This document shows, piece by piece, positions 6,990 through 30,690 of a stretch of DNA of 64,000 bases. The stretch is from Pyrinomonadaceae bacterium (lineage in GTDB: Bacteria > Acidobacteriota > Blastocatellia > Pyrinomonadales > Pyrinomonadaceae). Each line of letters starts with the position of its first letter. The stretch's first letter is position 1. The stretch is from contig DASQYL010000229.1 of the NCBI GenBank assembly GCA_035639235.1, positions 7 to 64,006 of the forward strand, written 5' to 3'. The notes beneath the pieces are model-generated. The model was not told where the DNA came from and did no database searches. It saw only the letters and a list, made by a program, of their open reading frames with translations. The position numbers and the translations under genes were made by a program.

Positions 6990-7514
6990 TTACGCCGACC
7001 TTGACCGTCGACGTTTTTCCTCGCCGAAATCGGCGAGTCGCCGGAGGCGATTGGGATGTTCCTTGGGCTCGCGTGTCACGGCGAGCACCGGTTCGAGTTT
7101 CGCGCCTTTGGCAATCAAGCCGGTGCCTTCGGCCGTTGGCTTGACTCGGGCCAGCAAGACGCGGGCGACTCGTTTGGGCATCAGCATCGGAGCAATCGTC
7201 ACAACTGATTCAGCGAGTTGTACGATGTCTCCGCCGCCACGCCAGTGTTCGCGCACGATGGCGTCGTCCGTGTGATCGATTAATCGCAACAGAGTGAGCG
7301 AAATCAAAAACAAATCGTCGATCTGGCCGACGAATGGAATCATGTCGGGTATGAAGTCGAAAGGAATGATCGCGTAGATCACCGCTGCGGCAAACAACGC
7401 GCGCTCAGTGCGCGGCACACGCTTATCGACCATCAGCTTGGCGCATAGAATCACCATGTTCGGAAGGAACATTAGTAGGTTCTTCATGCGGCTCTTCAAC
7501 TCACTCTTGCGCAT
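6990..7514 (-). CDS. YkvA/DUF1232 family membrane protein
   Basis: DFIPDMIPFVGQIDDLFLISL is the DUF1232 signature. Confidence 0.75.
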   Translation of the reverse strand: MRKSELKSRMKNLLMFLPNMVILCAKLMVDKRVPRTERALFAAAVIYAIIPFDFIPDMIPFVGQIDDLFLISLTLLRLIDHTDDAIVREHWRGGGDIVQLAESVVTIAPMLMPKRVARVLLARVKPTAEGTGLIAKGAKLEPVLAVTREPKEHPNRLRRLADFGEEKRRRSRSA

Positions 7515-7534
7515 AACTGTCTATGGTCGTTCAG

Positions 7535-7693
7535 CGGTGGTCAGTTGTCAGTTGTCCTTGTAATACTGCGTTCACAGTCTAAACGAGCGCAAATTCAGTA
7601 GCAAGCTTCTCGCATCTTCCAGTCTCATGATAAATTGCAGCCTGGCTTAACGATTAACGACTGACCACCGGCCACTGACCACTGACCACTGCC
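7535..7693. repeat. inverted oligo-repeat pair (ggtggtcagttgtcagttgtcc ... gactgaccaccggccactgaccactgaccactgcc) flanking ~100 nt
   Basis: Arms at 7535..7556 and 7659..7693 are near reverse complements built from tgacca/tggtca oligomers. The element ends at the pta start codon. Confidence 0.7.
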
Positions 7694-8704
7694 GTGTCCA
7701 TTCTCGATCAAATTCGCCAGCGCGCTGCCGCAAACCCTCAGCATATCGTGCTGCCCGAGGGCGAAGACCCGCGCACCGTGGTTGCGGCGAGCATGGCGGC
7801 GCGCCAAAGGCTGGCGCGCATTACGATCCTCGGCGATGAACAAAAGGTTCGCGAGGCGGCGCGACAATCGGGCGCGGATCTCGGCGGCGTCGAGTTGATC
7901 GATCACACGCGCGCGAATGATTTTGAAAAGCTGGTCTCCGTGCTTTACGACGCGCGCCGCGCGAAGGGCATGACCCTCGATGAAGCACGGACCGCGCTGC
8001 GCGATCCGCTATACTATGGCAACCTGATGGTGCGCGCCGGCCGCGCCGACGGCTCAGTCGCGGGCGCGACGAACACGACTTCGCACACTGTCAGAGTCGC
8101 GCTGCACTGCATCGGCGTCCGGCCGGGCTTCAAGATCGTTTCAAGCTTTTTCTTGATGGCCCTGCGCGATCCGAACTTTGGGCAGAACGGCGCGATGATC
8201 TATGCGGACTGTGGCGTCGTGATCGAACCCAGCGCGGCTGAACTCGCAGAGATTGCCATCGCTTCGGCTGGTTCGTGTCGCGCATTGCTCGCCGCCGAAC
8301 CGCGCGTGGCGATGCTTTCGTTTTCCACGAAGGGCAGTGCCAAGCATCGCTTGATCGACAAAGTTGTCGAAGCCACGAAGACGGTTCGCGTGCGCGCACC
8401 TGATTTGGAAATCGATGGCGAGTTGCAAGCCGACGCGGCGCTGGTGCCGGCGATTGCGCAATCGAAGACGCCGGGTTCGCCGATTGGAGGCCGCGCAAAC
8501 GTTCTCATCTTCCCCGATTTGCAGTCAGGCAACATAGCCTACAAATTGACTGAACGTCTCGCCGGCGCGACGGCGATCGGGCCGATTCTCCAGGGACTCG
8601 ATCGCCCCGCTAACGATCTTTCCCGCGGCTGTAAGGCTGAAGATATAGTCGACGCGATCGCGATTACGGCGGTGCAGGCGCAAGCGCGCAAAGGCGCATC
8701 GTAG
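7694..8704 (+). CDS. pta: phosphate acetyltransferase (short form)
   Basis: [12 protein letters not shown], the SHTVR region and [13 protein letters not shown] are hallmark Pta motifs. 336 aa. Confidence 0.93.
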
Positions 8705-24883: not shown

Positions 24884-24951
24884 TGGCGAGCGTTTGGTTG
24901 CGCGCCATCATTAACGGTTCTAGAATTCAAATCGCATTGACAACCAAATAA

Positions 24952-25127
24952 GTTTCGGGGGAGCCAAAGTCGACAGCGACCGAGGCTGAGAGTCGGCACA
25001 TTTTCGAATGCCGATTTCCAATTGTCGACTTTTCGCGAGCATTTCAATCGGCAATCGGCAATCACAAAATCGGCAATGTCCGTGACCCCTTGAACCTGAT
25101 ACGGTTAAGACCGTCGAAGGGAGAAAC
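24952..25127 (+). promoter_or_regulatory. TPP (THI-box) riboswitch aptamer, carrying a 93-nt insertion
   Basis: P1 is GTTTC (24952..24956) / GAAAC (25123..25127). Core reads GGGGAGCC..(P3 gtcg-acag-cgac)..GGCTGAGAG, then after the insertion ACCCcttGAACCTGATacGGtTAAgaCCgtcGaAGGGAG. It lies upstream of thiC. Confidence 0.85.
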
Positions 25128-25176
25128 AGCCATCGCCGGGGTCCCCAGCGGGGCAGCCCCGCTGGGGTGGCCATGA

Positions 25177-25211
25177 CCGTTCCGTCCTTTGATGGAGCGG
25201 TTTTGTTTTTT
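25177..25211 (+). terminator. intrinsic terminator, likely the riboswitch expression platform
   Basis: 10-bp stem ccgttccgtc / gatggagcgg (2 G-U pairs), loop cttt, followed by ttttgtttttt. Confidence 0.7.
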
Positions 25212-25337
25212 GGAGTGTAGCGATGTAGTTGTTTGGAAGACCCGCGCGCCGAGCCGCGGAGCGGCGGCGGAATTTAGCCCCGGGTGAGCGAGCGAAGCGA
25301 GCGTAACCCGGGGAACCTGAGGTTATATTTTTCCTGA

Positions 25338-27395
<2,058 letters not shown>

Positions 27396-27396
27396 A

Positions 27397-28938
27397 ATGA
27401 TTTTTCGCGAACAATTCGAGAATCTCCGTCTCGGGCCTCTACGAGGTTTGAAACGATGCGATCTGTTGAAGCTCGGTCGAATCAACGTCCTATGCGGAAA
27501 GAACAACACCGGTAAATCGACGCTGCTAGAAGCGGCGTCCAATAAAGCAACGCGAGCTAACGGCCTAACGCCAAGCGATGATTTCGTTGCAGATCTAGTA
27601 AAAGCAAATAACGACCATTTGGATAGACAACACGGGCATTTTGCGCGTGGCCGTCATCTTCGACACTTACTGCCTGACTTATTTCGCGAAGTTATACAAG
27701 CTCGCATGGCTTGGTTCGCGGGGGAAGAGAAAGAATTAGTCGAACTAATAAACAAAAAAGTGGCGGGTCCCAATCACGCCGAACTCCGACAAGCTATTCA
27801 TTCCACAGCCATAGTTCAGGATCTTGAATCCAGTTTCACGTACCCGACCGTCGAAGCTATCTACATTCCTCCAATTCGTAGGATTGAGGTCTCAGGAAAG
27901 ATCGCTACGGCTGAAGAACCTCAGCCAGAGGGTAAAGGGGTCGTGAATCGTCTATTCCATCTACGCAACCAGCCTCCCGGTAGCGATGGATTGAAGCTGG
28001 CTGCGTCCATCGACAATTCTTTTAAAGAGATTACAGATGGCTTTAGGTTTGGAGTCTTCAGCGAAAAAGAGAATAATTATGCGCTCAAGTTTTCCACGGA
28101 TGAAAAGACTTGGATTCCAGCCGAACACTGCGGCAAAGGGCTGCAAGATCTACTTGTGATTCTCTATTTTGCTCTTTCGAAGACCCGCGGCCTTTTGCTA
28201 ATCGAAGAACCCGAAGTTCATTTGCACCCGGAAATGCAACGCCGTCTTCTGGCGCATCTTAGATCGAATACGGAATCGCAGTACATTTTCTCAACGCACT
28301 CAAATGTCTTCTTGGATGGGGCTTTGACGGACCGCGTGTTTCTGACGAGATTTGACGCAGAGGTTCTCGTGAGCGATGCAACGTCCAAGACGACGTTCTT
28401 GCACGATCTTGGGTATTCTCCAGTCGATAACCTTGTTTCAGATCTCATTATTCTCGTTGAAGGACCATCCGATGTTCCGGTGATCGAAGAGTTCTTAAAG
28501 AAGCGGGGTCTTTATGAGACGTACAGCATAAAGTTGTGGCCCCTTGGCGGCGATATAATGGCAAAAGCTGAAATCGACCTGACCGTTTTTGCACAGTCCC
28601 ATCATGTTTTGGCTCTAGTCGATGGCGATCCTGGAAGTGGCAAAGTGCGCAAGAGATTTCAAACGAAATGTTCTGACCTAAACATTGAATGCGCACGCCT
28701 AAAACGCTACTCGATTGAAAACTACTTCTCGCTTCGCGCGCTGCGCCAGGTTTTTGGTTCTCAAATTCCAGATGCGATTACGGAGATTCTTGGAAATGAA
28801 AAGCTTGAGAGTCAGATCGGTATCAACGTGAAGTCCAACAACCGTTCTATAGCGCGAGAAATGAACTTGGAAGAAATCGCAGGCACAGACTTGGGTAAGT
28901 TTTTCGACCGAGTCGAACAAGTGCTGCGAGGTGTTTGA
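27397..28938 (+). CDS. OLD-family / PARIS-like nuclease: ABC-type ATPase fused to a TOPRIM domain
   Basis: Walker A GKNNTGKST. Walker B LLLIEEPEVHLHP. H-loop FSTHS. TOPRIM E (LIILVEGPSD) and DxD (LVDGDPG). RYSIENYF. ATG lies 1 nt after the thiC TAA. 60-nt samples give 43-47% GC against 57% in thiC. Confidence 0.8.
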   Translation: MIFREQFENLRLGPLRGLKRCDLLKLGRINVLCGKNNTGKSTLLEAASNKATRANGLTPSDDFVADLVKANNDHLDRQHGHFARGRHLRHLLPDLFREVIQARMAWFAGEEKELVELINKKVAGPNHAELRQAIHSTAIVQDLESSFTYPTVEAIYIPPIRRIEVSGKIATAEEPQPEGKGVVNRLFHLRNQPPGSDGLKLAASIDNSFKEITDGFRFGVFSEKENNYALKFSTDEKTWIPAEHCGKGLQDLLVILYFALSKTRGLLLIEEPEVHLHPEMQRRLLAHLRSNTESQYIFSTHSNVFLDGALTDRVFLTRFDAEVLVSDATSKTTFLHDLGYSPVDNLVSDLIILVEGPSDVPVIEEFLKKRGLYETYSIKLWPLGGDIMAKAEIDLTVFAQSHHVLALVDGDPGSGKVRKRFQTKCSDLNIECARLKRYSIENYFSLRALRQVFGSQIPDAITEILGNEKLESQIGINVKSNNRSIAREMNLEEIAGTDLGKFFDRVEQVLRGV

Positions 28939-28990
28939 GTTCATCTGAAGGACAGAATGTAAGCAAGGCAATCCGTGAAACGGACGGATG

Positions 28991-29086
28991 AATCTGTCGC
29001 CCGCTAAAGCGGGCTTTTGATTTGTGGTGGGCTTGGTTTCCCAGCACTGAAGTGCTGGGCTATTTTCAAGCGTCCGCTACGCGGAC
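28991..29086 (+). repeat. ~96-nt three-hairpin direct repeat, copy A
   Basis: aatctgtcgcccgctaaagcgggc..cccagcactgaagtgctggg..gtccgctacgcggac. The first hairpin plus tttt may also terminate the OLD gene. Copy B is at 30691..30786. Confidence 0.85.
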
Positions 29087-29131
29087 GAAATCAGCTTGTC
29101 AGGGGACATCGGCCGAGCGTAATTTTTCCCC

Positions 29132-29443
29132 ATGGCCACATCCCAAGAGATTTTCCGCGAAGCAATGGCGCTCTCGCCTGAGGTTCGCGCTGAATTGGCC
29201 GAGCGATTGATTGGCAGCCTTGTCGAAGACATTTCGCCAGAGATCGCGGCAGCACAACTGACCGAAGTGAAGCGACGGATCGCCGAAACTTAATCCGGCG
29301 AGGTTGAATTGATCGCGGGTGATGAAGTACTCGCGGACGTTCGACGCCGGCTCGATGTGCGATTGGCTGACATGGAAGCGCATCCTCACGATCAGTCTCC
29401 ATGGCCGGAAGTTAAGGCTCGCCTTGAACGGATGACTCCCTGA
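29132..29443 (+). pseudogene. addiction-module antitoxin-like gene (Unstab_antitox-type) interrupted by an in-frame TAA at 29291..29293
   Basis: MATSQEIFREAMALSPEVRAELAERLIGSLVED...EVKRRIAET, then a stop, then SGEVELIAGDEVLADVRRRL in the same frame. No toxin gene follows. Confidence 0.6.
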
Positions 29444-29680
29444 ATCAAACAGATTCGTTGCCCAGCGAACGTTTTTGGAGTGCGCCGGCTTGACGACGCT
29501 TTTTCATTTCTGCGAGCCAATAATTCGAAGCTCTGAAGGCGCGAGATAAATCGCGATATGCCAATCATGCGTTTTCGTTTCCCACGACTGAAGGGGTGGG
29601 GGTATTATCTCCGCCTGTCGGATAGGCTATCTTTGCGTGTCAACCGGAGCCTTATCAACATCATTCTGGAAGGAGCTGAA

Positions 29681-30511: not shown

Positions 30512-30690
30512 GACCACTATCGTCGCGACGTGAATTTAGCCCGACGTTTCAACGCCGGGATCACGCGGGATCAATCGAACCTTGTCGCATCAGCGACAAA
30601 TGAATCTCTCGCGACGAACAATTCATTCGCCCTTTCTTTCCGGCCTTGAAAGGCCGGGCTAGATTCAATCGTCGCTTCGCGACGACAATC

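Follow-up and report, generated by a model that had tools for sequence, protein, structure and literature searches.

In a 64,000-nucleotide (nt) stretch of contig DASQYL010000229.1 from a Pyrinomonadaceae bacterium, a soil acidobacterium (assembly GCA_035639235.1, positions 7 to 64,006 of the forward strand; hereafter the window), a gene encoding an OLD-family ATPase-TOPRIM protein of 513 amino acids (aa) plus stop (27397-28938, plus strand; here the OLD gene) directly follows thiC. We consider it probable that the OLD gene encodes a single-gene nuclease of mobile origin, that it was inserted long ago between the stop codon and the terminator of thiC, and that it is expressed by read-through, with an incidental control by thiamine. 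The preceding thiC gene (25368-27395, plus strand) encodes 675 aa and matched the Pfam families ThiC_Rad_SAM (613 bits) and ThiC-associated (103 bits). Identical thiC and OLD sequences were present in two other assemblies.

In the OLD protein, an ABC ATPase into which a helical, dimerisation-like domain is inserted precedes a TOPRIM domain with a complete two-metal acidic set. Three ATPase motifs were located on the plus strand: Walker A GKNNTGKST (aa 34-42, 27496-27522), the Walker B/D-loop segment LLLIEEPEVHLHP (aa 266-278, 28192-28230), which aligned with VIIEEPEMYLHP of 6p74, the structure of the Thermus scotoductus OLD protein (Ts OLD), and the H-loop FSTHS (aa 298-302, 28288-28302). The whole region aligned with the ATPase motifs of 6p74 and matched Pfam AAA_15 (75 bits) and AAA_21 (72 bits). 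Further downstream, the TOPRIM domain (aa 348-445, 28438-28731) contains VEGPSD (aa 354-359), DGD (aa 409-411), and IENYF (aa 440-444). All of these motifs had been quoted in a first-pass annotation made from the DNA letters, and the key residues proved invariant in a family alignment of 40 homologous sequences (A1): K40, E270, E271, E273, H301, E355, D359, D409, D411, and E441, and also K479 in the C-terminal tail. The spacing of E355/D409/D411 equals that of the metal A set of Ts OLD (E377/D431/D433), and D359/S439/E441 are spaced like its metal B set (D381/S478/E480); both sets, and an inserted dimerisation domain, have been described for Ts OLD (PMC7049728). OLD-like_TOPRIM was the best TOPRIM-clan match of the protein, and 23 of the 40 family members matched it at E<=0.01.

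The same alignment served as input for an AlphaFold2 model with a predicted local distance difference test score (pLDDT) of 88.3 and a predicted template modelling score (pTM) of 0.80. Foldseek searches with this model returned GajA, the retron-Eco8 OLD protein (second-best), and Ts OLD as the top PDB matches, all of them full-length (E 7e-10 to 1e-8; alignments of about 590-650 columns). By sequence, the best solved relative was Ts OLD 6p74, a Class 1 structure. The TOPRIM assignment is based on the family-wide profile matches, the acidic-residue spacing, and these model and Foldseek matches taken together. In the model, five helices lie between aa 61 and 146 (27577-27834, plus strand), inserted in the ATPase fold where OLD proteins hold their dimerisation domain, and the protein ends in a helical tail (aa 446-513, 28732-28935; modelled helices 446-512). 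The tail contains the invariant K479 (28831-28833), whereas R447, six residues past E441, is not invariant in the alignment. We regard K479 as a candidate for the catalytic Lys/Arg of OLD nucleases.

The division of OLD proteins into classes follows their gene context (PMC10568477; PMC12392090). By this standard the gene is a Class 1 (single-gene) OLD-family member, because no partner was present in the window and no neighbour was conserved across 85 family loci: clustering of flanking open reading frames (ORFs) yielded no recurrent neighbour except a tyrosine recombinase in 4 loci. Its neighbours in the window comprise genes for a phosphoglycerate mutase and for an unknown protein of 377 aa, thiC, a truncated Unstab_antitox ORF, and genes for an unknown protein of 317 aa, a methyltransferase, and an aspartyl protease. 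A helicase, reverse transcriptase (RT), or AriB domain was present in none of them, in agreement with the earlier description of the gene as solitary. The protein resembles the Class 1 members P2 Old, Ts OLD (6p74), Vc OLD of Vibrio cholerae, and YbjD/OldB of Escherichia coli in being encoded by a single gene without a conserved partner, in its size range (about 510-530 aa), in its N-terminal ABC ATPase that is interrupted by a helical domain, and in its C-terminal TOPRIM with an E/D/DxD/SxE two-metal set. It departs from them in that structural alignments show only about 14% identity, in that the PADLOC "Old" model matches just a part of the ATPase (52 bits), and in having a helical tail of about 70 aa with an invariant Lys, whereas Ts OLD has an Arg seven residues past the metal B Glu.

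Gabija GajA (Class 2) has the same two-domain architecture, was among the top Foldseek matches, and gave PADLOC GajA scores of up to 58 bits. However, the window protein is shorter, and no UvrD-like gajB was found downstream in either the window or the 85 family loci; the OLD gene is instead followed by a terminator, an Acido-Lenti-1 motif, and the truncated Unstab_antitox ORF, with no helicase. The type I-B retron effector (Class 3, Retron-Eco8) likewise has the ATPase-TOPRIM fold, and the PADLOC model ATPase-Toprim_I-B scored 57 bits over aa 225-448, but the Retron-Eco8 OLD protein is some 230 aa longer, no RT gene was found among the window neighbours, and no retron non-coding RNA was detected in the Rfam scan of the window.

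The first-pass annotation had also called the protein PARIS-like and compared it with fused AriA-AriB proteins. Its OLD ATPase-TOPRIM identity was upheld by the Pfam and structure comparisons; the PARIS label was dropped, as the AriA and AriAB PADLOC matches were confined to the ATPase, with AriAB covering only aa 262-316. A fused PARIS system (AriA-AriB, Class 4), with a tRNA-cleaving TOPRIM that is released or activated on a phage trigger, would be compatible with PADLOC AriA scores of 76-78 bits, with the match of AriA structures to the ATPase region, and with the existence of fused AriAB forms (PMC12392090). On the isolated C-terminal domain, however, DUF4435 (AriB-type) gave no match even at E<=10 and the PADLOC models gave none at E<=1, and the best TOPRIM-clan and structural matches were those of OLD proteins (OLD-like_TOPRIM; GajA, Eco8 OLD, and Ts OLD). 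We find this identity highly improbable.

Together, these comparisons assign the protein to an environmental and divergent subfamily, and none of the PADLOC models spans it from end to end. The best PADLOC match was NsnB (84 bits, ATPase only), whereas scores within the family ranged from 420 to 900 bits. An exhaustive HMMER search among 1.84 billion representatives recovered 237 clusters at 50% identity (E<=1e-30). Cultured phage genomes and PLSDB plasmids contained no close relative, only remote matches of 22-36% identity.

The thiC stop codon and the OLD start codon are separated by one base. As read from the sequence, TAA occupies 27393-27395, a single A follows, and the ATG begins at 27397 (TAAaATG, 27393-27399, plus strand). 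An AGGAG precedes the thiC ATG by 6 nt, whereas the GGAG nearest to the OLD gene ends 19 nt before its ATG, which leaves the gene without a properly spaced Shine-Dalgarno sequence. The earlier report of a start 1 nt past the thiC stop, with neither a terminator nor an obvious ribosome-binding site in between, was thus accurate. The pair has the stop-start features of translationally coupled genes, both here and in an orthologous locus (L007, TGAatATG). RNA folding in search of a start-masking hairpin at the junction gave no significant result in either (window z -0.73; L007 z +1.65).

Upstream of thiC we found the aptamer of a thiamine pyrophosphate (TPP) riboswitch (THI element; 24947-25139, plus strand), which matched RF00059 over the full model (1-105) with 56.8 bits, above the gathering score of 54.3 (E 1.3e-9). 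The aptamer was detected only with laxer filters, the default filters having missed it because of an 85-nt insert in P3. It is followed by a terminator-like hairpin with a T-run (25175-25212, plus strand; a 12-bp stem within the hairpin 25175-25202, then TTGTTTTTTG) that is likely the expression platform. On the plus strand between 24700 and 29578 no promoter-like site was found by a scan that knows only the sigma-70 consensus, and no convincing terminator was found between thiC and the OLD gene; the sole terminator-scan match in the thiC 3' end was a weak 5-bp stem (27239-27251), and the number of matches equalled the shuffled expectation. A GC-rich terminator-like hairpin, GCCCGCTAAAGCGGGC plus TTTTGATTTG (28999-29024, plus strand), lies 60 nt past the OLD stop codon and is likely the end of a thiC-OLD unit. 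In three relatives (L012, L013, and L015) a strong hairpin is located within about 10-30 nt past thiC, with whole-segment folding energies of -58, -63, and -26 kcal/mol; direct folding was used for these flanks, as the terminator scan missed such long-stem hairpins. Because the hairpin of the relatives directly follows thiC, the OLD gene appears to lie behind thiC but ahead of the site of the thiC terminator.

With no convincing terminator or promoter motif between the two genes, a terminator past the second, and a hairpin directly behind thiC in relatives, thiC and the OLD gene are likely co-transcribed, and the placement of the latter within an apparently riboswitch-controlled thiC unit, as first proposed, was supported. 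The OLD transcript would then arise by read-through of the TPP-riboswitch-gated thiC mRNA. Since the start codon lies 1 nt past the thiC stop and has no close Shine-Dalgarno sequence, the protein is probably translated at a low level, through termination-reinitiation.

Three further observations concern the riboswitch and thiC. Between the TPP aptamer and its terminator there is a palindromic element of 35 nt, CCGGGGTCCCCAGCGGGGCAGCCCCGCTGGGGTGG (25136-25170), and an 83% copy of it (25962-25996) is inserted in frame in thiC, where it adds about 14 aa to a variable loop. These are the only two copies in the window; nearly all aligned relatives have no insert at this place in thiC, and one (L009) has an unrelated insert. 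An 84-aa gene call on the minus strand (24920-25174; JGI/ENA) overlaps the riboswitch and its terminator and is very likely false. Finally, the 5' part of thiC contains a perfect 14-nt tandem duplication (25432-25459; AACTCAGAACTGAA twice) that encodes a repeated N-terminal peptide segment.

The composition of the OLD gene differs markedly from that of its surroundings. Its GC content was 47.7% (48.1% at third codon positions, GC3), compared to 57.6% (GC3 69.5%) for thiC, and no other 1.5-kb stretch of the window has so low a GC content (mean 54.9%, standard deviation 2.0). The low GC content recorded earlier was therefore real, although the hand-counted samples (43-47%, against 57% in thiC) were slightly low for the gene as a whole. 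The GC content of family members elsewhere averaged 9.7 points less than that of their flanks and was the lower of the two in 28 of 29 loci. The available flanks of 80 thiC loci from GTDB contained no OLD homologue. Ten of these loci are from Pyrinomonadaceae or Blastocatellia (ThiC identity 75-86%), and the gene was absent 3' of thiC in nine of them; the tenth (L008) was uninformative, with about 112 nt of 3' flank. Such a comparison of related thiC 3' flanks had been suggested as a check. Homologues with 59-62% identity either follow a beta-lactamase-like gene or are located opposite RNase J, and thiC adjoins none of the 85 other family loci. On one IMG/VR contig (L088, 4720-7494), a family member with 44% identity is located 27 nt past a gene for a 402-aa HNH-domain protein and close to genes for a cI-like helix-turn-helix protein, YqaJ, and RecT, a context suggesting that the subfamily is occasionally carried on prophage-like elements. 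A search for att-like direct repeats and inverted repeats around 27000-29600 gave short chance matches only, and no integrase was found there. No empty site was found in the 80 GTDB thiC loci; at such divergence only thiC itself is syntenic, and insertion boundaries are therefore not definable.

Orthologues linked to thiC were identified in three other metagenomic lineages, with 78% (L007), 73% (L098), and 71% (L004) identity. In L007 the OLD gene follows thiC directly, and behind it lies the antitoxin-like gene that is also present in the window. The L004 locus consists, in this order, of an intact thiC, about 570 nt containing a decayed DUF5615 (toxin-like) gene (263-830), a degenerate remnant of the thiC 3' end, and the OLD gene; in L098 the DUF5615 ORF in the corresponding place (1-525) is intact, and there too the OLD gene is preceded by a degenerate thiC 3' end. 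These degenerate duplicates, directly upstream of the OLD gene, correspond to the last 60-170 nt of thiC. No conserved ORF ending just before the OLD gene was found in L004, where the thiC remnant has decayed. Non-synonymous distances grouped the four as ((window, L007), (L004, L098)), in agreement with two types of thiC tail. The proportion of synonymous differences among the thiC-linked orthologues was 0.75-0.83, i.e. saturated, that of non-synonymous differences was 0.13-0.19, and the ratio of non-synonymous to synonymous substitution rates (dN/dS) between L004 and L098 was 0.12.

The orthologous junctions, the branching order, and the purifying selection indicate that the tight thiC-OLD junction is ancestral to the four lineages, that the gene is functional, and that it was kept after uncoupling from thiC. 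Judged by these sequences, its acquisition is not recent. Of the horizontal acquisition proposed in the first-pass annotation, the foreign composition and the absence behind thiC in nine relatives were corroborated, and recency was contradicted by the 71-78% identical orthologues. We envisage that the gene entered the ancestor of a narrow Pyrinomonadaceae sub-lineage from a low-GC, horizontally circulating pool, that it would have been inserted past the stop codon of thiC but ahead of the thiC terminator, and that it was then presumably inherited vertically under purifying selection.

The orthologues also bear on the mode of expression. It is unlikely, in our estimate, that the OLD gene is transcribed from an unrecognised promoter of its own, placed in the 3' part of the thiC coding region, and is translated from an independent start, in which case its expression would not depend on the riboswitch and the 1-nt spacing would reflect compaction. 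Such a promoter would account for the maintenance of the gene in L004 and L098 at about 0.5 kb from the intact thiC, and in L004 a GGAG lies 5 nt before the GTG start codon; moreover, promoter scans were limited to the sigma-70 consensus. Against it, no promoter-like site was found in the window region scanned or upstream of the OLD gene in L007, L004, and L098, spaced Shine-Dalgarno sequences are lacking in the window and in L007, and in all four lineages thiC (or its remnant) and the OLD gene are co-directional with no terminator between them. The absence of a promoter motif and of a spaced Shine-Dalgarno sequence, together with the start 1 nt past the thiC stop, led us to favour read-through and reinitiation as the probable route.

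We likewise regard it as quite doubtful that the linkage is adaptive, i.e. that the gene was tied to thiamine status or to the translation of an essential gene, as a starvation defence or as a gene that is hard to lose. The junction has been stable over lineages with saturated synonymous sites, and the stop-start spacing of 1-2 nt was kept in the window and in L007. In L004 and L098, however, an insertion parted the OLD gene from thiC and the gene was retained, showing that the tight coupling is dispensable. Furthermore, no other family locus adjoins thiC, the closest paralogous contexts are the beta-lactamase-like gene and RNase J, and the different defence and toxin-antitoxin genes in the thiC flank of other relatives fit an insertion hotspot better. 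The regulatory coupling that had been described as unusual is thus probably incidental: under the reading we prefer, thiamine control of the OLD gene would be a side effect of the insertion site and not a designed link.

By analogy to P2 Old, Vc OLD, and YbjD, the OLD protein is most likely an anti-phage or abortive-infection nuclease. A cue of infection would be sensed by an ATPase dimer, which would then activate the two-metal TOPRIM nuclease, with ATP binding or hydrolysis gating the cleavage, which may be nicking of DNA or cleavage of tRNA. P2 Old cleaves tRNAs in the anticodon stem (PMC12445682), Vc OLD introduces nicks into DNA and prevents phages from replicating (PMC12392090), and the phenotypes of YbjD are ATPase-dependent with a dispensable TOPRIM (PMC13261556). 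Alternatively, the gene could encode a housekeeping or genome-maintenance ATPase-nuclease with a role in repair or the cell cycle (cf. archaeal Cran1) and not in immunity. Strong purifying selection, long vertical retention, and a housekeeping neighbourhood such as that of Escherichia coli ybjD (PMC13261556) speak for this role, and a cell-cycle role has been described for one OLD-family ATPase (PMC12796447). We nevertheless find it improbable, given the patchy distribution (absence by thiC in the nine family-level relatives, and only the 237 clusters recovered), the consistently foreign GC content, and contexts that vary and include occasional integrases and one prophage-like setting.

Several points weigh against the explanation we favour. 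The OLD-like_TOPRIM matches stayed below the 23.2-bit cut-off, at 17.9 bits for the full protein and 20.5 bits for the isolated C-terminal domain. The profile searches that had been recommended as a check thus confirmed AAA_15 and AAA_21, gave a sub-threshold OLD-like_TOPRIM, and yielded neither DUF4435 nor an end-to-end PADLOC model. As none of the PADLOC defence models matched the C-terminal domain, the anti-phage function rests on analogy, and the characterised Class 1 OLDs that provide this analogy disagree on the substrate (PMC12445682; PMC12392090; PMC13261556), while the archaeal OLD-family ATPase Cran1 has a non-defence, cell-cycle role (PMC12796447). An unconventional internal promoter may exist in the 3' end of thiC, acidobacterial promoters being poorly defined. 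Finally, the GC3 of the four thiC-linked orthologues is about 0.48-0.50 despite synonymous saturation, compared to 0.66-0.70 in host genes, and this persistent low GC3 is not explained by a single old transfer. It could result from a gene-intrinsic compositional constraint, or from repeated allele replacement at the thiC locus; the congruent branching argues against the latter.

Other relatives carry different genes at the corresponding position. Directly 3' of thiC, and co-directional with it, we found a type IIG restriction-modification enzyme in L015 (7009-10473; PADLOC 270 bits), a 1362-aa SIR2_2-TPR protein in L016 (7023-11111), and a DUF1016/PDC-S02 protein in L012 (7075-7587); in L009 an Unstab_antitox ORF and a small partner ORF lie two ORFs downstream of thiC (7402-8003). 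In the window, an Unstab_antitox (PF09720) ORF of 53 aa lies past the OLD terminator (29132-29443); it is interrupted by an in-frame TAA (29291-29293), with the frame running on to 29443, and no toxin partner was found for it. It is probably a decaying toxin-antitoxin remnant. A toxin-antitoxin module shared by ancestry between the window and L009 was considered and rejected, since the antitoxin-like ORF behind the OLD gene and the antitoxin behind thiC in L009 show no similarity. Two intergenic Acido-Lenti-1 RNA motifs (RF01687) were also recorded in this region, one just past the OLD terminator (29040-29087, 40.6 bits) and the other one gene further (30639-30684, 37.5 bits), as were two weaker look-alikes, at 29574-29600 and, on the minus strand, at 25252-25284.

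This arrangement suggests that defence and toxin-antitoxin genes accumulate at a variable site 3' of thiC in Pyrinomonadaceae. As in defence-gene hotspots next to core genes, a conserved thiC is followed by different cargo in different relatives. It differs from them in that only 10 lineages were sampled, both thiC flanks are without synteny at this divergence, and no empty site, att repeats, or integrase were found, for which reasons the hotspot reading remains suggestive. A more far-reaching version, which we consider doubtful, is that defence and toxin-antitoxin genes land repeatedly in this flank, where cargo arriving before the thiC terminator gains TPP control and reinitiation, so that the dosage of an immune gene would track thiamine. 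If this were true and the gating were selected for, the locus would represent an immune gene controlled by a metabolite riboswitch.

The thiC operon context of the OLD gene is most likely an incidental product of the insertion site and not a new kind of system, and its general significance is for that reason modest. For annotation, we suggest that the gene be labelled as an OLD-family ATPase-TOPRIM protein instead of "AAA family ATPase", and that the TPP riboswitch take the place of the minus-strand call that overlaps it. This locus would not be reported as a system by current defence-finding models. Class 1 OLD genes occur in about 0.45% of the genomes of bacteria (Patel and Seed, cited in PMC13261556), and Class 1 is the least understood OLD class, with known substrates that disagree. 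To this class the locus adds a divergent subfamily of about 240 clusters at 50% identity from uncultured soil bacteria, and it illustrates how a mobile gene can become part of a riboswitch-controlled housekeeping transcript.

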